From positions 83,285-147,284 of the forward strand of contig JAHFLD010000001.1 in assembly GCA_023245035.1 (NCBI GenBank): a stretch of 64,000 bases of DNA, read 5' to 3'. The notes beneath the pieces are model-generated. The model saw only the letters and a program-made list of their open reading frames with translations. It had not been told where the DNA came from and made no database searches. The stretch comes from Candidatus Harrisonbacteria bacterium. Its GTDB lineage: Bacteria; Patescibacteriota; Minisyncoccia; UBA6257; 1-14-0-10-40-38. This document shows positions 4,591 to 39,603 of the stretch, piece by piece. How positions within the stretch are numbered: the first letter of the stretch is position 1; every line of letters begins with the position of its first letter. The translations under genes and the position numbers were made by a program.

Positions 4591-5651
4591 TACTTCGCTG
4601 CCGCCTCCGTCTTCTTCGCAATCTCGTGGAGCAACTTCTTATCTTCTTTTAGGGTGTTCTTGGCATTCTCCAATCCCACCCCCAACTTGTGCTCTTCAAA
4701 GTAATAAGTTAAACCGGTTTTGGAAACGACGTTATATTTCAAAGCGGTATTCACCACATCGGCCTCATAAGAAATTCCCTCGCCGTAGCTGATATCAAAT
4801 TCCGAAACTCTAAACGGCGCCGCCACCTTGTTTTTGACCACCTTGGCCTTGATTCTATTCCCAACAACCTCCTCGCCCTTCTTGATCTGGGCGATTCGCC
4901 GAATATCCACCCGCACCGATGAGTAAAATTTCAACGCCTGCCCGCCCGGAGTCGTTTCTGGATTGCCAAACATAACGCCAATTTTCATCCGGATTTGGTT
5001 AATAAAAATTATAAGCGTGTCGGTTTTAGCGGCGATTGCTGTCAGCTTGCGAAGTGCTTGCGACATCAGTCTGGCTTGCCGTCCAATGTGAAGATCGCCC
5101 ATATCACCCTCAATTTCTGCCTTGGGCGTCAGCGCCGCCACGGAATCCACCACGGCGATAGTTATCATTTCGGAGCGAACCAAACTTTCCAAAATGTTAA
5201 GCGCCTCCTCGCCATTGTCGGGTTGAGAAATAATCAGCTCCTTCACGTTGACTCCAAGTTTTTCGGCGTATTCTGGATCCAGCGCGTGTTCAGCGTCAAT
5301 AAAAGCCGCCTTGCCGCCTTTTTTCTGTGCCTGGGCGACGACATTCAGCGCCAAAGTTGTCTTGCCGGACGACTCTGGTCCATAAACCTCAACAATTCTT
5401 CCTCGCGGCAATCCACCAACCCCCAGCGCCAAATCGAGCGAAAAGGAGCCGGTAGAGATCGCGTCAACGTGAACCTTTTTCCAGTCACCGAGCTTCATCA
5501 CCGATCCCTCGCCAAACTTATCCTGCAAGCTCTCGAGTAGCTTATCTATATTCCTCGGGCCCGGCTGGTGAGCCTCTTTTTTCCCCAACGGCGCCCCGCC
5601 CTCATCAACCAACTCCTCCTCCTGTTCTCCACCAGAATTTTTCTTAGCCAT
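4590..5651 (-). CDS. recA: recombinase RecA
   Basis: Walker A ([12 protein letters not shown]), RecA core ([10 protein letters not shown] ... [38 protein letters not shown]); 353 aa. Confidence 0.95.
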
Positions 5652-5906
5652 AATATCTACAGTTTATTCCGCAAGCGCAATATCCGCCAGTACCCAGCTA
5701 GTTTACGAATTTTTTGCTCTTCCACCACCCAAGCGAGGAACATCTTCCCCTGAAACCATTACGGAGACGAGCGTGATTTTCTGCGAATGAATAGAACTTT
5801 TTGTCGGGGACACGCGAGCGGAGCGAGCAGGGTGACAAAAATTCGTAATAAATGAGCTAGAAAATAGCGAGTTGCAGTGGGTTGAAGGGAAGATGTTCTG
5901 AGCTCC

Positions 5907-6629
5907 CTATGGTTGTCCCCCAGACAACGGCAACGTCGTGGAAGCCCTGGTGTTTGGCCTTCTTGAACCGGACTGATCTTTTGGCTCCAAATTATCGGCC
6001 GGCTGATAAACCACCTGTCGAGTCATTCGCGTCTCCCGCCCCAAGATCTTAGTTGCCACAAACTCAATCGTATTCAAACCCGGCTCCAGCGTATAAGGAT
6101 AGGAAAATTCCCCTCGGGCATTAGTTGGCACCTCATCGCCCCCGATAATAATCTTGTCTCCGGCATTAATGGATCCCTGGATGACCAGCTCGCGCTCCGT
6201 AACCGTTGTTACCGGAAGCACCGGTACCGTAATCCGAAGCGTCGGCCGATTGAGAACTCTAAAAAGAAAAAAACCGAATACCAAAAGCGCCAAAGCTCCA
6301 CCGGCCGAAAAAAGTATCAGCCGTGGATTAGTGGAAGAAGTTAAGCGAAAACGATTGGAGGGTAAGACATCTTTGGCGCCGGAGGTGCGAAGCGACGTCT
6401 CCTGCCGGTAGGTCAGCATCACCTCATTGACGTCTAAATCAAGCGCCTGGGCGATTTTCATCAGGTAGCCGCGAATATAGGGAGCCGCCGGCAGCTTTTC
6501 CAAATCACCGCTTAAAATCGCCTCAATATGGCGTTCGGCGACACCGGTCTTTTGCGCCAGCCGCTCAAGATTAATCTCCCGCGACTGCAGGCGCTCCTCA
6601 AAAAACTTTTTAAGCGAATGATGTTCCAT
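5907..6629 (-). CDS. rodZ: RodZ-like cytoskeleton protein (N-terminal XRE-type HTH, one TM segment, C-terminal extracytoplasmic domain)
   Basis: The N-terminal HTH follows the RodZ pattern (LAQKTGVAERHIEAILSGDLEKLPAAPYIRGYLMKIAQALDLDVNEV). Single TM segment (LILFSAGGALALLVFGFFLF). Encoded next to ftsK. Confidence 0.6.
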   Translation of the reverse strand: MEHHSLKKFFEERLQSREINLERLAQKTGVAERHIEAILSGDLEKLPAAPYIRGYLMKIAQALDLDVNEVMLTYRQETSLRTSGAKDVLPSNRFRLTSSTNPRLILFSAGGALALLVFGFFLFRVLNRPTLRITVPVLPVTTVTERELVIQGSINAGDKIIIGGDEVPTNARGEFSYPYTLEPGLNTIEFVATKILGRETRMTRQVVYQPADNLEPKDQSGSRRPNTRASTTLPLSGGQP

Positions 6630-6632
6630 ACC

Positions 6633-8768
6633 TTATTCCAAGGCTTCTGGCGGGGCTTCGTAAACCTCGCGAGGCTTAGCTCCCTCTCCCGGGCCAACTA
6701 CGCCGCGCTCCTCCATGATGTCAATCAGCCTTGCCGCCCGAGCATAACCAACCTTGAGTCTTCTTTGCAATAGGGAGGCCGAAGCCTTCTTGGCTTCGCG
6801 GACCACCCCCACTGCCTCTTGATAGAGCTCATCGTCATCGTCGGCATCGCCACCAAACATGTCTTCCGGTTGCCTGATTAAGGCGTCTTGAAGGGGTTGG
6901 TTTTCCGTTTGCGTTCCCGCAGACGCGATCATGGCATCGGCCAACTCGTTGTTGTCGCGAATAAAATCAGTCACAGCGTGAATCTCTTCTTCCGAAACAT
7001 AGGATCCCTGAATGCGCTTCGGCTTGGAATAATCGGAAGAAATAAACAACAAATCTCCGCCGCCCAACAGTTTTTCCGCGCCGGCCAAATCAAGAATGGT
7101 GCGGGAATCAATTTGACTGGCGACCTGCAAGGCGATTCGCGCGGTAATGTTGGCTTTAATTAATCCGGTGATGACCTCCACCGACGGCCGCTGGGTAGAA
7201 AGAATCAAATGAATGCCGGTCGCCCGCGCCATCTGCGCCAGGCGCACAATTGAGCCTTCTATCTCCCTCCCATAGCTCGCCATCAAATCAGCCAGTTCAT
7301 CCACCACGATAACTATGTAAGGCAGCGGCTCATCGCTTTGCTTGTTAAAACTTTTTATATCGCGGACTCCGGCTCTAAGCAGAACCTCATACCGCCGCTC
7401 CATTTCTTTAATCGCCCAACGAAAGGCGCCGACAGTTTTCTTGGCCTCGGTAATGACCGGAGCCACCAAGTGCGGTATGTGCTCGTAAATCGAAAGCTCC
7501 ACGCGCTTCGGATCAATCAAGAGCAGACGCAAAGTATCCGGAGCGTTCTTGAAAAGCAGGGACAAGATCAGGGTATGGATCGCCACACTCTTACCACTGC
7601 CGGTGGATCCGGCGATAAGCAAATGAGGCATCTTTTCGATATTGCTAAAAATCGGCTCGCCGGTTACGTCGCGCCCCAAGGCAAAGGTCAGCGGCCCGGC
7701 AATGCCAAAATCCTTGTAGGCCATAATACTTCCCAAACGCACTATTGCCGCCGCCTTATTGGGCACCTCAATTCCCACCAGCGCTTTGCCTGGAATCGGC
7801 GCCTCAATGCGAATCGGATGCGCGGCGAGCGCCAACTCAAAGTCGCGCTGAAGAGCGATGATCTTGGTCAACTTAACCCCCTCGGCTGGTTTTAAAGTGT
7901 AGCGCGTTACCTTGGGGCCAATGTTGATCTCGCCCATTTCAACTGGAATCCCAAAACTTTCCAGGGTCCGCTTGATTATGTTGGCGTTGGCGCGCAGATC
8001 GCCGGAAGTTGGTTTTTCAATCTGCGAAGTTAAGAGTGATAGGGGAGGCGGCACGTAATTTTTGCTGGAAATCGGGCGGGGCAAGGTTCGAGCGATTTCC
8101 CCGGCTGTGTTCTCCTTAACCTCCATCTCATCCGGCTCCTCGTCTTTTTTGTTTTCCTTGATCTTGATCTTGGTTACTGGTTCAGGGTTTGGCTCTTCGG
8201 CCTCCGAGTCGTCGTCGCGGTCGCCATCTCCGGCCTCGTGGATAATCAGCGCTTTTTCTTTTGGTTTTCGTTCACTGCCAAAACGGAGCGGCGTATTGAA
8301 AGCGATGAGCAGAGATATCAACAGCAGAAGACTCAAAATAATAATTGAGGCCAAATAGCCAAAAAGCGCCTCAATGGATCCGATGGCTTGCCCCAAAATC
8401 CCCCCCTTGTCCGGAAAAAGCACATCGATCAGCCCCAGTCCGGCAATCACAAAAAATCCGGCCCCAAACAAACTCATGCCCAAGATTTTTCGCTCGTGGC
8501 TAAAGAGCAAAAAGAAGGCCACCAAAAAAGCTATGAAAGGAATCAGGTAATATCCCAAACCCAAGAGGGTCGAAAGAACGGTAAAGACAAAATTACCCGC
8601 CGGACCGGATCGGCCAACGCTTGCCAATACCAAAACGATGGAGACTCCAAAGAGCAAAACAGCCACGATACTCTTCTTGGTCTCGGGGCTCACGCGGTGC
8701 CGTGTTTCAACGCGCCCCCCCGGGCGCTCCTTTTTTTTCTTCTTGCCGCCAAAAGAAATTCCAAACAT
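6633..8768 (-). CDS. ftsK: DNA translocase FtsK/SpoIIIE
   Basis: N-terminal polytopic membrane domain, an acidic linker, the FtsK motor with Walker A (GSTGSGKSVAIHTLILSL) and Walker B (IVIVVDELADL), and a C-terminal gamma winged-helix domain. 711 aa. Confidence 0.9.
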   Translation of the reverse strand: MFGISFGGKKKKKERPGGRVETRHRVSPETKKSIVAVLLFGVSIVLVLASVGRSGPAGNFVFTVLSTLLGLGYYLIPFIAFLVAFFLLFSHERKILGMSLFGAGFFVIAGLGLIDVLFPDKGGILGQAIGSIEALFGYLASIIILSLLLLISLLIAFNTPLRFGSERKPKEKALIIHEAGDGDRDDDSEAEEPNPEPVTKIKIKENKKDEEPDEMEVKENTAGEIARTLPRPISSKNYVPPPLSLLTSQIEKPTSGDLRANANIIKRTLESFGIPVEMGEINIGPKVTRYTLKPAEGVKLTKIIALQRDFELALAAHPIRIEAPIPGKALVGIEVPNKAAAIVRLGSIMAYKDFGIAGPLTFALGRDVTGEPIFSNIEKMPHLLIAGSTGSGKSVAIHTLILSLLFKNAPDTLRLLLIDPKRVELSIYEHIPHLVAPVITEAKKTVGAFRWAIKEMERRYEVLLRAGVRDIKSFNKQSDEPLPYIVIVVDELADLMASYGREIEGSIVRLAQMARATGIHLILSTQRPSVEVITGLIKANITARIALQVASQIDSRTILDLAGAEKLLGGGDLLFISSDYSKPKRIQGSYVSEEEIHAVTDFIRDNNELADAMIASAGTQTENQPLQDALIRQPEDMFGGDADDDDELYQEAVGVVREAKKASASLLQRRLKVGYARAARLIDIMEERGVVGPGEGAKPREVYEAPPEALE

Positions 8769-8819: not shown

Positions 8820-9245
8820 ATGAGGAAAAAGAATCAGCCATCCATAAAGGCCCCAGCGGCAAAAATCTTTGGCGCCTACGACATCCGTGGCCGCTATCCA
8901 CGGGACATTAATTTGTCGGCGGTTGCGGTAATCGCGCGGGCCTTAAGCCGCGACTGGCGGGGCCAGACAGTCGTGCTGGGGCGCGACATCCGTCACGGCT
9001 CCGTAGAAATTTCTTCTGGTATTAAGTCCGAGCTTGAATCTGGCGGGGTCATGGTGATTGACGGCGGGTTAATGACCACTCCAATGCTCTATTTTCTCGT
9101 CTGCGAGACCAAGGCCTCTGGCGGGATCATGGTGACCGCCTCGCATAATCCAAAAAATTGGAACGGATTGAAGATGGTCGGATCAGGCGCTATTCCAATC
9201 CGCGGCGAGGAGGTTTATCAAAAAGTTAAAAAACTTGAGTCATGA
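8820..9245 (+). CDS. phosphomannomutase/phosphoglucomutase, N-terminal fragment (domain I with the catalytic Ser loop)
   Basis: Active-site loop TASHNPKNWNGLK. 141 aa, ends at a TGA that overlaps the ATG of the next ORF. See the fragment at 9242..10123. Confidence 0.7.
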   Translation: MRKKNQPSIKAPAAKIFGAYDIRGRYPRDINLSAVAVIARALSRDWRGQTVVLGRDIRHGSVEISSGIKSELESGGVMVIDGGLMTTPMLYFLVCETKASGGIMVTASHNPKNWNGLKMVGSGAIPIRGEEVYQKVKKLES

Positions 9246-10123
9246 ACCATCTCCAATCTTATCTAACATTTCTCAAACAGTTTCTTCGGCCAATGCGTCC
9301 GCTTAAAATCGTGATTGATTGTTCGGATGGTGTTGCGGGTGAAATCTTAAAAAAACTTTTTACGGAAGACGGGAATCCGGAAGTTATTTTAATTAACGCC
9401 GAACCCAATCCCGATTTTCCGGCGCACGGCCCCAATCCGCTTGTCCGTGGGGCGATGCGCGAAATTGCCGAAGCGGTAAAACAAGAGCAGGCCGACTTTG
9501 GCGCCATTTTTGACGCCGACGGCGATCGTGTTTTTTTTGTAGATAATCACGGCGGAGAAGTTCCCGCCGATGCCGTCTCTAGAATCATGTCCGGCGAAAT
9601 CAAAACGCCGATTCTCGTAACGCCCAACGCCGGCTACCTTATGCGAGATTGGCATGAAGTCCGCGAAGGCCGTATCGGCCACGCCTTTATGAAGCAAACA
9701 TTACGCGAGCAAAATCTGGACTTTGGTTACGAAAGTTCCGGCCACTACTACTTTAAAGATTTTTTCTCTTGCGACTCGGGCATTGTGGCCTTGTTAAAGT
9801 TTCTGAGCGCGATTTCAAGTACCACCTCTCCGCTTCGAAAAACCGTCAAAAGCTTTGGCGTCGTCTATCGCCTCCAAGAAAAAAACTTCCACCTCAAAAA
9901 TTCGGAGCTCGTCGCAAAAAAGCTCGTCCAAATAGAAGCCACCTATACCGGCAAGTCCAAGATTAGCCGTACCGAAGATCTGCGCGTGGCGGGGGACGAC
10001 TGGTGGTTTTCTCTGCATCCTTCGCATACCGAGCCACTCTTGCGCCTTAATCTTGAAGCCAAAGACAAAAAAGTCTTTCAGCAAAAAAAAGCGGAAATTT
10101 TGAGTCTAATCAAATCAGCTTAA
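9242..10123 (+). CDS. phosphomannomutase/phosphoglucomutase, C-terminal fragment (domains II-IV)
   Basis: Metal-binding loop FDADGDR and sugar-binding GYESSGHYYF. In a different frame from 8820..9245, with an ATGA overlap. Together the two ORFs make a normal ~435-aa PMM. Confidence 0.7.
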   Translation: MNHLQSYLTFLKQFLRPMRPLKIVIDCSDGVAGEILKKLFTEDGNPEVILINAEPNPDFPAHGPNPLVRGAMREIAEAVKQEQADFGAIFDADGDRVFFVDNHGGEVPADAVSRIMSGEIKTPILVTPNAGYLMRDWHEVREGRIGHAFMKQTLREQNLDFGYESSGHYYFKDFFSCDSGIVALLKFLSAISSTTSPLRKTVKSFGVVYRLQEKNFHLKNSELVAKKLVQIEATYTGKSKISRTEDLRVAGDDWWFSLHPSHTEPLLRLNLEAKDKKVFQQKKAEILSLIKSA

Positions 10124-10266: not shown

Positions 10267-10296
10267 TTGACAAGTAAGCTTCATATATAGTACAAT
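10267..10296 (+). promoter_or_regulatory. near-consensus sigma-70-type promoter (TTGACA - 18 nt - TACAAT)
   Basis: ttgaca at 10267-10272 and tacaat at 10291-10296, in a long non-coding stretch upstream of the GC-rich orphan ORF. Confidence 0.4.
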
Positions 10297-10385
10297 AGCT
10301 AAGTTAGTTGAGCTCCTTAAAAATCACAAAAAACCGAGTTTCTTTACCGTGGCTCGCGCCACGGGAACTCTGACTTGTCGATTTA

Positions 10386-11192
10386 TTGGCTAGCTCAAAT
10401 CCGCTAGTACCGGATTTCACCGCGAAAGGACTCTCTACGGCCGCTGATACCGGCATCGAAACGAACGTCTGGAAGCGCTTCTTTGATCTGATTGCAATGA
10501 TCATGAAGCTCGTCCGCGACGGCAAGCGCGAACTGGAAGATGTTTGCGACGCGATCCAGCTCATCCGCGATCGCGCGGATTTTGCCACAGCCTTCAAGGC
10601 CTTCCTCGCCTCCCGCGCCCTTGGCGCGAAGCCCGAGGCAACTCCTTCTGCAGGTTTTACCTCCATCTGGAGGCAGGTCTACGCCAAGCTCGGTGTAACA
10701 GCCGACTTCTCGGGGCTCACGATCGAAGACCGCCCCGGATACTGGCCGATTGTGGTCCTTACTGGCATGACCCCGCAAAAGATCATGCAGGCCATTAGGG
10801 AGGCGAACCTCTTCCAAACACGGCAGTACGCTCCCGATCTTGATATTGCTGTCATGGAGAACGACCGCGACCCCAAGACTGGATCCTACGTCGTCTACGT
10901 CAAGGCAACTCAAGAAGCCGATCCCGAGCTCAAGAATCTCTCGGCAAACGAGCTGAAAGATCGAAAGATTCAAGGCATCACGATCCTAGAGCGCATCCTC
11001 CTTGAGGTCTTCTACTTCATCCTCTCAGGCGGGAAACATCTCGACCCCATAACCGTGACCTTTTGCACCGGTTCGCGGGACTCCGGCGGCCATGTACCGA
11101 GCACGGGCTGGCTCAATCACACGGTCCGCGTCTATTACTGCTTTTCCGGCCTTCGGTATGATGGTGTTCGTGCTCGTGCAGTAGTTTCGTAG
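10386..11192 (+). CDS. hypothetical protein encoded in a compositionally atypical (GC-rich, high GC3) segment
   Basis: ORF of up to 268 aa (TTG at 10386; first ATG at 10497). No family recognised. Has its own upstream promoter and a terminator directly after the stop. A 189-aa ORF overlaps it on the opposite strand, as expected for a GC-rich shadow. Confidence 0.45.
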   Translation: MASSNPLVPDFTAKGLSTAADTGIETNVWKRFFDLIAMIMKLVRDGKRELEDVCDAIQLIRDRADFATAFKAFLASRALGAKPEATPSAGFTSIWRQVYAKLGVTADFSGLTIEDRPGYWPIVVLTGMTPQKIMQAIREANLFQTRQYAPDLDIAVMENDRDPKTGSYVVYVKATQEADPELKNLSANELKDRKIQGITILERILLEVFYFILSGGKHLDPITVTFCTGSRDSGGHVPSTGWLNHTVRVYYCFSGLRYDGVRARAVVS

Positions 11193-11214
11193 CCCTTCGT
11201 TCTTTTTCACTTAC

Positions 11215-11243
11215 GCCCCACACAAATGTGTGGGGCGTTTATA
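11215..11243 (+). terminator. rho-independent terminator
   Basis: gccccacac aaat gtgtggggc (9-bp GC-rich stem, 4-nt loop) followed by tttatatt, 23 nt after the stop of the 10386..11192 ORF. Confidence 0.6.
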
Positions 11244-11253
11244 TTCGTCACCA

Positions 11254-11433
11254 TTTCGCATCATTTGCGTGTGTCTTTCCGCGCTTATTCGCATCGCCAA
11301 ACCCTAAACCCTGAATCTTATTCGTGCTTATATTACGCTTTCGCATCATTAGCGTGCACTCTTCTGTATTTTTTCGCATCGCCATTGTATTCCAGTACTT
11401 ATTCGTATTTTCGTAATAATTCGTAATTTCGTA
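11254..11433. repeat. degenerate ~85-bp tandem duplication carrying TTCGCATC and TTCGTA iteron-like motifs
   Basis: Motif tttcgcatcattNgcgtg at 11254 and 11339. Motif ttcgcatcgcca at 11288 and 11373. Motif attcgt at 11320 and 11401. TTCGTA occurs four times between 11402 and 11433 with 8/10/8-nt spacing. AT-rich, between convergent genes. Confidence 0.5.
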
Positions 11434-11437
11434 GTTT

Positions 11438-12001
11438 CTAGAATAACGTCGCCGGGAAAATCACCTCCCTCCAAGTAACCGCCGCCTTTTCGTGAACCCC
11501 GGTAATCCGATTCGGCGCCTTCAAAAATCCCTGCTTCTTTCCCAAGTCATAGAGTTCTTTGGTGATTTTTACGTCGTTCAAGCAATAATTTTTCAACTCC
11601 TCCATATTCCCGTCGCGATACAACTCAATCGCTTCCAAGCTGTGGTGGGTTTTGCTCATACCCAGATTTACCTTGCCCAAATCATCCAGCCCGATCTTCC
11701 GCCCAACAGCCAGCTCCACGTCTTCGCAAATATCCAAAGCCGCGAGTGCCTTGGTATTAAAAGAAAAATGCTTCTGCAGTACCGGCAAATCAAATCGATT
11801 AATAGTGTGCCCGATTACCAGTCCCGCCCCCTTAAAAAGTTCCTCAACCTTGTCTAACTCGTGCTCGGTAAAGCACCAGTACTTATCCTGATTGTAGGAA
11901 TAAACGCCGACCACCGAAACTTGGAGCGCCGCGATGTTCCGTTCGCCGCCAACCTCGCGAAAGCTGTTTTTAGTTTCAATATCAAAGACGAGCTTATCCA
12001 T
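11438..12001 (-). CDS. DEDDy-type 3'-5' exonuclease-like protein (RNase H fold)
   Basis: Exo I motif (LVFDIETKN), Exo II-like (GHTINRFDLPVL) and Exo III-like (YCLNDVKITKELY). Start placed at the internal Met (MDKLVFDIE). The longer ORF to 12103 adds an Arg/Pro-rich extension of unlikely reality. Confidence 0.6.
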   Translation of the reverse strand: MDKLVFDIETKNSFREVGGERNIAALQVSVVGVYSYNQDKYWCFTEHELDKVEELFKGAGLVIGHTINRFDLPVLQKHFSFNTKALAALDICEDVELAVGRKIGLDDLGKVNLGMSKTHHSLEAIELYRDGNMEELKNYCLNDVKITKELYDLGKKQGFLKAPNRITGVHEKAAVTWREVIFPATLF

Positions 12002-37353: not shown

Positions 37354-37962
37354 ATGCAGGGCCGAATCACCAAAATCCAAAAACTTTCGGGAAAGTTTCA
37401 CAACATCTTTCGTTTTACTCGGCGCACCGCCAAGGTAAAATTGCATAATGGCAAAGAGTATTCTCTAATCCGCCACGTTCTCGAAACCGGCCCGGCGGTC
37501 AGCGTCTTGCCCTACTTTTATGACGAGCAAAAAAAAATCTGGAACGTCGTTATGGTTCGCCAATATCGTCCGGCGGTAGACGCGGTTTGCCTGGAAGCTC
37601 CCGGCGGACTGACTCACGAAGGGAGCGATTTGAAGCGCGAAATGGCTCGTGAATTGCAAGAAGAGTCCGGCATCAAAATCACTCCGCGAGCGATTAAGGT
37701 TATCGGAAGCCAGCACCTAGCCAATTCTTTTTGCGATCAAGTGGTGCACCTTGGAATTGTTAAGCTCCCGCCAAAAATCATCGACCAGCTTCGGCGCAAA
37801 GAAAAAATCCACAATGGAGTCATCAGCGAGCGCGAATTTACCGAAGTCATCGTCTTACCTCTTGCCAAGGTTTTGAATAACCAAAAGTTAGTCACCTACA
37901 CCCTCGCCAAATATCAAGCGCTGGATCTCAAGCATCGTTTAGGTGATCTTCTTGAAGGCTAG
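37354..37962 (+). CDS. NUDIX hydrolase
   Basis: Nudix box (APGGLTHEGSDLKREMARELQEESGI). Confidence 0.75.
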   Translation: MQGRITKIQKLSGKFHNIFRFTRRTAKVKLHNGKEYSLIRHVLETGPAVSVLPYFYDEQKKIWNVVMVRQYRPAVDAVCLEAPGGLTHEGSDLKREMARELQEESGIKITPRAIKVIGSQHLANSFCDQVVHLGIVKLPPKIIDQLRRKEKIHNGVISEREFTEVIVLPLAKVLNNQKLVTYTLAKYQALDLKHRLGDLLEG

Positions 37963-38115
37963 GAATAAAGCTTCGCATTAGAAAACTTTTAAATACGAGG
38001 CGCGAGAGAGTACCGAGGGAGGCGTACATTAGTAGATGTACTCTGACCGAGGAACGGAGCTCGCAACAAAGTAGTTAAAGTTTTTAATGCGAAGAAGAGT
38101 ATAAAAAACCCCGAC

Positions 38116-39603
38116 CTAAGTCGGGGCTGTACTACTGCGCAAAATGAAGTCCGGGAGTCCCTGTCCCATGCTGTGTCCAAACTGAAGTTCGGGCACATCG
38201 GTCTGGTAGGGTTGTCCCAGTTTTTCTCGAAGCTCTCTTTCGGTCTCTCGGCACAGACGCGCCAAATCCTCGGCGGAAAGTTCATCGGTAAAGGCGAAGA
38301 AGCTGTCCAGCCCCATTCGCGCCCCGCGATCACCCTTGTAGTAGATGAAGTCCTTAAAGTAATCAACTTGTCTGGAATACAAGTGATCGCCATTTACCGT
38401 GTAAACCCAAACTCCATCCAAATGCGGAACCGCGTGGTCAAAGTAGGGCGTTCCCGGATAGACGGTAATCCGCGTCAGATCAAACGATTCCGGCCTCATC
38501 GCCAAAATCCAATCCTTTGTCTCTAAAATTGTCTCTTCGGTCTCGCCCGGATGCCCAACGGACATCAAGGCCTTAACTCTTAAGCCGTGTCGACGCGCTA
38601 TCTCCACGCACCGCGTATTATCTTCTCGAGTGGCGCCCTTCTTGATGTTGCGCAAGATACGGGGCGATCCCGATTCAAAGCCGGTCAAAATTTCGCGGAA
38701 TCCGGCCTCGTACATCGCCTCCGCCTGTTCGTCGGTAAAAAGTTCGGACTTGATGAACCCGCGCAGAGCCCATTCAATTCCCAACTCCTTGCCGAGTGTG
38801 GCAATGGCCCGCATGAGCGCTACCATTTGCGGATTAACATTTAGCTCATCGTCGTAAAACATTATCCCGCGGTAACCGTAGGTCTGGTAGATGTGGCGCA
38901 TCTCGGCAATCACGCTTTCCGTTGTTCGCACGCGAACCTTGCGCAAAAATGGCGATTCGCGCCCGCCGCAAAAACCGCATTGGAAGGGGCATCCCAACTG
39001 GGCGATCATGCTTGTGGCCGGCGCGCCGTTGATTCGGTAGTGATAGCTTTCCATCGCGACCAGATCACGGGCAGGAAAGGGTAGAGCCGTTAATTCTTCG
39101 GAAGTCAGAAATAACGGGCTGCGCCGATCATCGGCATCAATCAACTGTGGTCCGTTCGGATTAAGCGCCTCAAAGATCGCCTTCTCGCCGTCGCCGGCGA
39201 CCAGACAATCAAACATCTGGGCTAATCTTTGTAAATCATGATCCGCTCGGCCTAAAACGTTGCGTTCAACTTCTTGCCGTCTTGCCGCATTCACGAGTGT
39301 AACGTGTGGGCCGCCCAAGACTAACTTGATGTCCGGATTAAAATTCCGGATTATCTCCGCGATTCGCGCCGTTGCCGGCATCTGCGGGCTGGTCGCTGTA
39401 ATGCCAATGAACCAGGGTTTGTTTTTGCCGGCAATGTAGGCGCAAACCGCCTCGGGGTAGTTGGCCACTCCGGACAAGTCCAAGACATCAACCTCGATTT
39501 TTTTTTCCCGCAACACCGCCGCTACCCGTAAAACTCCGATGTGAGTGAAGAATCTTTCATCGCTCAAAATGAGCGACGGGGGAATGATTAAACCGACAGG
39601 CAT
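38116..39603 (-). CDS. B12-binding radical SAM enzyme (class B radical SAM; cobalamin-binding domain plus radical SAM core)
   Basis: N-terminal B12-binding-like Rossmann segment. CxxxCxxC cluster motif (GCPFQCGFCGG). Start at the internal Met, preceded by AAGGAG 5 nt upstream. The terminator hairpin overlaps its stop (38108-38125). Confidence 0.8.
   Translation of the reverse strand: MPVGLIIPPSLILSDERFFTHIGVLRVAAVLREKKIEVDVLDLSGVANYPEAVCAYIAGKNKPWFIGITATSPQMPATARIAEIIRNFNPDIKLVLGGPHVTLVNAARRQEVERNVLGRADHDLQRLAQMFDCLVAGDGEKAIFEALNPNGPQLIDADDRRSPLFLTSEELTALPFPARDLVAMESYHYRINGAPATSMIAQLGCPFQCGFCGGRESPFLRKVRVRTTESVIAEMRHIYQTYGYRGIMFYDDELNVNPQMVALMRAIATLGKELGIEWALRGFIKSELFTDEQAEAMYEAGFREILTGFESGSPRILRNIKKGATREDNTRCVEIARRHGLRVKALMSVGHPGETEETILETKDWILAMRPESFDLTRITVYPGTPYFDHAVPHLDGVWVYTVNGDHLYSRQVDYFKDFIYYKGDRGARMGLDSFFAFTDELSAEDLARLCRETERELREKLGQPYQTDVPELQFGHSMGQGLPDFILRSSTAPT

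Follow-up and report, generated by a model that had tools for sequence, protein, structure and literature searches.

Direct repeats beside a gene of unusual composition raise the question of whether they mark a replicon that once integrated there, a recognition site that is still in use, or ordinary spacer DNA enlarged by duplication. The question arises here for a 245-bp spacer between two convergent genes, in which the first-pass annotation had seen a helically phased binding array and, together with the adjacent GC-rich “orphan” gene, what may be left of a mobile element or replicon that had integrated there. The array is neither an origin nor a centromere, and no integrated replicon left it behind. 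At about even confidence, we regard it as species-specific non-coding DNA that arose by nested local duplication in the convergent 3' spacer, probably forms the untranslated tail of the exonuclease mRNA, and has no replicon function; no function has been demonstrated for it, and possibly it has none.

Setting and anatomy of the array

The window (the whole 64-kb stretch of DNA analyzed) carries the kinds of gene found on a chromosome of Patescibacteria (candidate phyla radiation, CPR), including a sigma factor, RNase Y, RecA, FtsK, phosphomannomutase, HtrA, and ClpB. Within the 12.5 kb around the array are RecA, FtsK, phosphomannomutase, a DEDD exonuclease, an RNase-H-like protein, cysteine desulfurase, HtrA, and ClpB. 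The genome is compact, with about 7.6% intergenic DNA as estimated with a crude ORF mask. The features of the locus are collected in Table 1.

Table 1. Features of the convergent spacer and its flanking genes (window coordinates), with the arrays of a distant CPR genome (coordinates of locus L006)
Feature	Position	Strand	Description
Sigma-70-type promoter of variable-protein gene	10267..10296	+	TTGACA-18-TACAAT, 11/12 consensus matches; not part of the array
Variable-protein gene (“orphan”)	10497..11192	+	231 aa; homolog of variable (target) proteins of diversity-generating retroelements (DGRs)
Intrinsic terminator hairpin of variable-protein gene	11213..11238	+	12-bp perfect stem, then TTTATATT
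Repeat unit 1	11254..11338	+	TTATATT upstream (11239-11245)
Unit 1, box A	11254-11271	+	TTTCGCATCATTTGCGTG
Unit 1, box B	11288-11299	+	TTCGCATCGCCA
Unit 1, box C	11317-11325	+	CTTATTCGT
Repeat unit 2	11339..11406	+	TTATATT upstream (11328-11334)
Unit 2, box A	11339-11356	+	TTTCGCATCATTAGCGTG
Unit 2, box B	11373-11384	+	TTCGCATCGCCA
Unit 2, box C	11398-11406	+	CTTATTCGT
Tail	11402..11433	+	four TTCGTA hexamers; nested 8-nt and 18-nt duplication; ends 4 nt before the exonuclease stop codon
DEDD-type 3'-5' exonuclease gene	11438..12001	-	PF01612, E = 1.7e-6; convergent with variable-protein gene
L006 arrays	4755-4828, 6339-6365, 7145-7282, 8348-8413, 9881-9932

Two homologous units of about 85 bp, followed by four TTCGTA hexamers, make up the array (window 11239-11437). 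The tandem duplication beyond the terminator that had been annotated earlier is present as a direct repeat of 46 nt at 76% identity and offset 85 (11254-11299 versus 11339-11384), and the homology runs the whole length of the units, with 23 mismatches in 72 aligned columns at that offset. Each unit has the same order, TTATATT, 4-8 nt, box A (TTTCGCATCATTnGCGTG), 16 nt, box B, 13-17 nt, and box C, with an A-to-B spacing of 33 nt in both; unit 2 continues into two 18-nt half-units, the source of the four hexamers. These start at 11402, 11410, 11420, and 11428, at the spacings of 8, 10, and 8 nt first described, and account for a Tandem Repeats Finder (TRF) call of period 8 with 4.4 copies and a score of 35. 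Repeats are nested at scales of 7, 8, 18, 33, and 85 nt.

Motif statistics underline the concentration and show the feature to be robust. Between the hairpin and the exonuclease stop codon (199 nt) lie ten TTCG cores on the + strand, with start spacings of 11, 33, 33, 19, 33, 29, 8, 10, and 8, and none on the - strand; TTCG[CT]A occurs eight times on the + strand against 0.075 expected (Poisson 2e-14). TTCGCATC starts at 11255, 11288, 11340, and 11373, its sole four copies on either strand of the window. For the motif count proposed in the first-pass annotation as a check, window-wide totals are at background only because the excess copies are all concentrated in the array. Box A and box B have no other copy in the window or in 32 loci from organisms other than this strain, and a dispersed repeat, MITE or regulon was rejected on that ground.

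The array is unusual for a convergent 3' spacer, as was claimed, at least in this genome. Direct-repeat families of 35 nt or more number only three in the window, this one included, each with at most two copies, and the genome has no second tandem array to equal it in copy number and length. Two further descriptors fared less well. The stretch had been called AT-rich, and its GC content is lower than that of the window, but only mildly so (0.387 versus 0.486). Helical phasing is not borne out, since the Rayleigh statistic at 10.5 bp is R = 0.33 (p ~0.33) and 60% of random placements show a 9.5-11.5-bp periodicity at least as strong.

The differences between the two units are informative about their origin. 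Transitions account for 18 of the 23 mismatches, against 37% expected from composition (P = 7e-5), so that this is a true duplication and not independent placement of motifs. Perfect identity is confined to blocks of 12, 12, and 9 nt, with about 60% of linker positions changed, and this clustering of mismatches has a permutation P of about 0.0015, likewise when only G/C-containing columns are permuted, in a test that is post hoc, draws on two copies only and would be invalidated by clustered multi-nucleotide mutation events. Transitions that stand up to five in a row hint at such clustered events, which would undermine the assumed independence of mutations. Perfect blocks amid heavily changed linkers are unexpected under simple neutral divergence and suggest constraint on the boxes, for which no other feature argues.

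Three further observations concern other parts of the window. Phosphomannomutase is encoded on the + strand by two ORFs with a 4-nt overlap (8820-9245 and 9242-10123), the first for domain I alone and the second for domains II-IV; the identical ENA and Logan contigs call the same split, so an error in the sequencing of a single assembly is not its cause. Upstream of recA, AAAAATTCGTAA occurs twice in the spacer, as inverted copies 138 bp apart (5700-5712 and 5838-5853) that have TTCGTAATAA in common with the array. At 37966-38130 (+), in the spacer 3' of gene 37354-37962, CTTCGCATTAGAAAACTTTTAA and TTAAAGTTTTTAATGCGAAG close a long imperfect hairpin with an intrinsic terminator (38098-38130) behind it; the element is a candidate structured non-coding RNA of about 125 nt, without a match in Rfam.

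The variable-protein gene, its cassette and the sister species

The presumed foreign orphan proves to be a DGR-type variable protein. Its family is small (13 proteins) and matches no Pfam or PHROG model, and its C-terminal domain has a C-type-lectin-like fold. In two loci from other genomes, L007 and L027, the last ~40 codons of the variable gene recur, about 200 nt 3' of the terminator, in an Asn/AAC-rich form; adenines of this template repeat account for 28 of 38 mismatches in L007 (3758-6163) and for 16 of 17 in L027 (1540-2625), and a reverse transcriptase (RVT_1, E = 5e-24) lies just past the template copy in L007. These adenine-biased copies are the template-repeat/variable-repeat signature of DGRs, which are abundant in CPR genomes (PMC8144416). 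The 64-kb window yielded no template repeat and no reverse transcriptase, the latter sought also by its motif, so the gene would be either a remote target or inactive. Its high GC content, formerly taken as foreign, is a trait of the family, which is 4-14 points GC-richer than the host locus in 7/7 genomes examined, and gives no evidence of recent arrival here. The N-terminal alignment of homologs suggests that translation begins upstream of the ATG annotated at 10497, possibly from the TTG at 10386.

The gene belongs to a promoter-leader-gene-hairpin cassette. Homologs in L003, L006, L007, L025, and L027 are preceded by equivalent strong promoters, and the genes have leaders of 120-200 nt (window 10297-10496; L003 4884-5003; L025 325-446) with conserved stretches in common (GCTCyTTTAAAAmC...AAAACyG) and a possible closing stem, AGCTC/GAGCT; RNAalifold found no consensus structure for the 5' leader among six divergent homologs. 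The terminator hairpin is unidirectional, its T-run being absent on the - strand, and it is kept in L025 and L008. The demonstration that this cassette occupies different chromosomal contexts in different CPR genomes is a by-product of the analysis; at none of the cassette loci in other genomes does a TTCG array follow the hairpin, and no direct repeats or target-site duplications flank the cassette. In L006, the cassette is bracketed by two copies of a terminator-like hairpin element (AACCCGCAnAAAAGAAG...CTTCTTAAATGCGGG; 4846-4885 and 6024-6080), which may represent either a target duplication or a hairpin repeat of the dispersed kind.

The array can be compared with the only close relative, a sister species (L008, L012, and L013) in which the exonuclease has 95% and the RNase-H-like protein 90% amino-acid identity, at about 82% in DNA. 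It keeps the convergent gene pair, in which the variable-protein homolog has 55% identity, and a hairpin like that of the window. Only 72 nt separate its stop codon and hairpin, with 0 CGAA/TTCG motifs and no array (L008 4565-4700 versus window 11192-11437). The first-pass annotation had proposed comparing relatives for presence or absence of the whole 10.1-11.4 kb segment; the sister species has the gene at the same position without the array. Because the close relative has the spacer without it, the array, on this sequence comparison, originated, or at any rate grew, within the lineage of this species. Intermediate relatives that might document its history are absent from the databases: the next exonuclease homolog among 5.8 billion clustered proteins is at most 64% identical, and the exonuclease cluster has two members. 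The exonuclease itself is widespread in Patescibacteria (550 homologs at E <= 1e-30); its gene is preceded here by the RNase-H-like gene (PF04308), and in more distant relatives a co-directional gene lies directly 3' of it.

The sister species (GCA_964367145.1; L003 and L008) has at least two variable-protein paralogs, one beside the exonuclease and one in L003. With flanking genes 90-95% identical between the species and variable-protein orthologs only ~55% identical, the sequences indicate very fast evolution or paralog replacement.

Within the strain, which occurs in four samples, the array is uniform: contigs read from three of them (L001; L002 and L028; L029) are 100% identical to the window, although these samples possibly represent one population. 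The Logan contigs L002 and L028, from one run, break inside the 26-nt terminator palindrome (window 11211-11237) with a 27-nt overlap; strain variation was rejected as the cause, the perfect overlap and 100% identity to the window pointing to an assembly effect.

The distant CPR genome represented by L006 has short tandem arrays in nearly all of its intergenic spacers, each array different (Table 1). Two of these are TACGAA/TTCGTA clusters, with the same hexamer as the window array; an extended palindrome of TACGAA x3 / TTCGTA x3 lies between pilM and the next gene, and AATTCGTA repeats lie just upstream of pilM. This genome shows that short tandem arrays in intergenic spacers, including TACGAA/TTCGTA clusters, arise readily in CPR.

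Duplication weighed against function

Our favored reading can be cast as a sequence of events. We infer that replication slippage or unequal recombination acted in the spacer between the 3' ends of the convergent genes, where an 8-nt TTCGTA unit would have been doubled into an 18-nt pair and the ~33-nt sub-unit and ~85-bp unit likewise duplicated, so that nested duplications would have taken the spacer from ~70 nt to ~200 nt. Lying downstream of the strong variable-gene terminator, the array probably reaches RNA only within the untranslated tail of the exonuclease mRNA; no terminator-like site was found on the - strand from 11437 to 11239, and the sequence predicts no other transcript across the array. 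In keeping with duplication, the surroundings are housekeeping genes, neither strand of the array holds promoter-like or terminator-like sites, and Rfam searches at gathering and permissive thresholds, like ARAGORN searches for tRNA or tmRNA, are empty; a known RNA family or tRNA remnant was rejected on these results. Folding z-scores with the hairpin excluded are -0.29 (- strand) and +0.24 (+ strand), and a structured RNA on either strand was rejected because z is about 0 once the terminator hairpin is set aside. Against duplication alone speak the perfect boxes between heavily changed linkers, the identity of the array across the strain's readable assemblies, with no visible instability, and the compactness of a genome that has no comparable tandem array, in which a functionless 200-nt insert is somewhat unexpected.

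Two further candidates were tried and rejected. The gene caller annotates a 45-aa ORF on the - strand (11248-11385), but an offset of 85, which 3 does not divide, puts the two units out of frame with each other, and L008 lacks the ORF, so that a protein-coding repeat was discarded. A decayed DGR template repeat or variable-region copy would have to rest on a best local alignment of GTAGTTTCGTAG with GTAATTTCGTAG, whose score was reached by 41 of 300 shuffles; the differences between the array copies are transitions and not adenine-specific.

Of all the readings weighed, the least probable, and to our minds extremely so, is that the repeats are iterons or a partition centromere left by an integrated plasmid, phage or mobile element that brought the GC-rich gene with it. 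Such a relic would account for direct repeats with a conserved core and for the TCGCCA within box B, which we take to be the box-B hexamer of P1 parS; the differing contexts of the cassette across genomes imply, moreover, that the gene does move or get rearranged. Against it speak the surroundings of the array. No rep, par, integrase, or transposase domain occurs in the 12.5 kb around it, nor any ParA, ParB, ParR, or ribbon-helix-helix domain among the genes called in that interval (L001), and the 64-kb window has no reverse-transcriptase motif. DnaA boxes form no cluster and total no more than chance in the window (the nearest DnaA-like 9-mer, with one mismatch, is at 11994, inside the exonuclease gene), an AT-rich unwinding element is lacking, and GC skew is negative on both sides of the array without a switch; an origin of replication was rejected on the DnaA-box and skew results. 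Each long box occurs only twice, and hexamer spacings of 8, 10, and 8 are not helical. Among 72,556 plasmid and 50,697 phage records there is no similarity to the array, and a scan of 2.9 million viral contigs with the box-A pattern returned six isolated, chance-like single matches, with box B in none. The cassette lacks flanking direct repeats, occurs elsewhere without any such array, and in the sister species stands at the same site with none. The proposal of an integrated remnant thus fails, and with it the iteron and centromere versions of the binding-array reading; the conserved boxes and diverged linkers would allow that reading in a wider sense, as a recognition-site function on DNA or RNA.

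In its general form this wider reading, which we think possible but rather improbable, holds that TTTCGCATCATTnGCGTG, TTCGCATCGCCA, and CTTATTCGT together with the TTCGTA tail, set in transition-scrambled linkers, are recognition sites that purifying selection maintains for a trans-acting factor, making the array a recent cis-acting module of a Patescibacteria lineage at the level of the exonuclease 3'-UTR or of DNA; such a putative module might insulate the exonuclease gene from the convergent DGR-target gene or couple the two. Placed on RNA, which we consider unlikely, the element would be a functional exonuclease 3'-UTR, or a small RNA processed from the exonuclease mRNA, stabilized by the hairpin at 11213-11238, with ten purine-rich single-stranded motifs (UACGAA, GAUGCGAA, core RCGAA) that would serve as a decoy or be bound by an RNA-binding protein or nuclease. 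The array begins 4 nt after the exonuclease stop codon and, with no - strand terminator between that codon and the hairpin, should be on the exonuclease mRNA; all ten cores are on one strand, the RNA is predicted to be unstructured and its motifs accessible, and the boxes are constant between units while the linkers vary. On the other side, the array is missing in the sister species despite a 95% identical exonuclease, the hairpin has no U-tract on the - strand, Rfam holds no such family, no complementary or significantly similar target was found elsewhere in the window or in the loci from organisms other than this strain, and no partner protein was identified. Placed on DNA, a version that we consider quite unlikely, the boxes (core wTTCGyAT, with the longer A and B) would be bound, as direct repeats, by a sequence-specific DNA-binding protein encoded in trans; candidates are a regulator of the ribbon-helix-helix or winged-helix type, a nucleoid-associated protein and a polar roadblock between the convergent genes. 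Extreme motif enrichment, a single orientation of all the repeats, an A-to-B distance of exactly 33 bp in both units and the retention of boxes against transition-scrambled linkers would fit this version, but both flanking genes end here and leave no promoter to regulate, helical phasing is absent, dyad symmetry is not consistent, the 64 kb hold no further site, no candidate binding-protein gene is adjacent, and the sister species again lacks the array. Very improbable, finally, is a pair of tandem small-RNA genes on the + strand, each starting at box A, just 3' of a -10-like TTATATT, and running antisense into the exonuclease gene. TTATATT is kept 4-8 nt upstream of box A in both units, and tandem sRNA paralogs typically keep promoter and seed and diverge elsewhere; yet there is no -35, extended -10 or promoter call and no terminator 3' of either unit, so that neither an own promoter and terminator, nor structure (z = +0.24), nor a curated match marks the array as a small-RNA gene, and the sister species lacks it.

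Known repeat systems and what the comparison means

Set beside the iterons of theta-plasmid and phage origins (pSC101, R6K, F, P1, and lambda ori), the array shares same-orientation direct repeats, a conserved core and some 33-bp start spacings. Such origins have at least three direct repeats of equal length (~17-22 bp) in a regular register, whereas the array has box A (18 nt) and box B (12 nt) twice each and no regular 22-bp register; they have an adjacent or overlapping rep gene, whereas the neighbors here are a DGR-type variable protein and a DEDD exonuclease in a chromosomal housekeeping context without an initiator gene; and they combine DnaA boxes, an AT-rich unwinding element and a compositional switch, which are missing. 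Partition centromeres (R1 parC, the pSM19035 omega heptads, TP228 parH, and P1 parS) resemble the array in their clustered direct repeats of 6-8 nt, and P1 parS combines two motif classes, box A and box B, in one site, as the array does. They are linked to genes for an ATPase or centromere-binding protein, which are lacking near the array, and the array is known from a single locus in one species. None of these four defining features of iteron origins and centromeres that could be tested in the sequence is present.

Two further systems resemble the locus in part. The RNA repeats of type III toxin-antitoxin systems (ToxI) are, like the array, tandem non-coding repeats beside a nuclease-family gene, but ToxI lies upstream of, and is co-transcribed with, a ToxN-like endoribonuclease, while the array lies downstream, has two long units and adjoins a conserved DEDD exonuclease, with no ToxN-like gene. 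The likeness to DGR targets (Bordetella phage BPP-1 mtd, Treponema tvpA, and Thermus TaqVP) belongs to the neighboring gene and not to the array: the gene has the C-type-lectin-like fold and a C-terminal region that varies, and after this region come a conserved pyrimidine-rich segment and a GC-rich hairpin. It differs in having no template repeat or reverse transcriptase within the window, and the array has no significant similarity to the variable region. The former orphan is thus identified as a DGR-type variable protein of a family without a Pfam or PHROG model, with no template repeat or reverse transcriptase nearby.

There is a likeness also to bacterial intergenic minisatellite or VNTR arrays, which share with it head-to-tail, diverged, nested homologous copies in a non-coding spacer, lineage specificity and the absence of associated genes. 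The array differs from them in showing no copy-number variation among readable assemblies and in confining divergence to the linkers while the boxes are perfect. It belongs to a known kind, the intergenic tandem or direct-repeat array. If it is a duplication-derived spacer only, it matters little except as a warning against reading a replicon into direct repeats next to a gene of odd composition; if the boxes are constrained, it would be a rare case of a cis-element that has only recently arisen in an ultra-small genome, and the sister species would supply a clear comparison with and without it.
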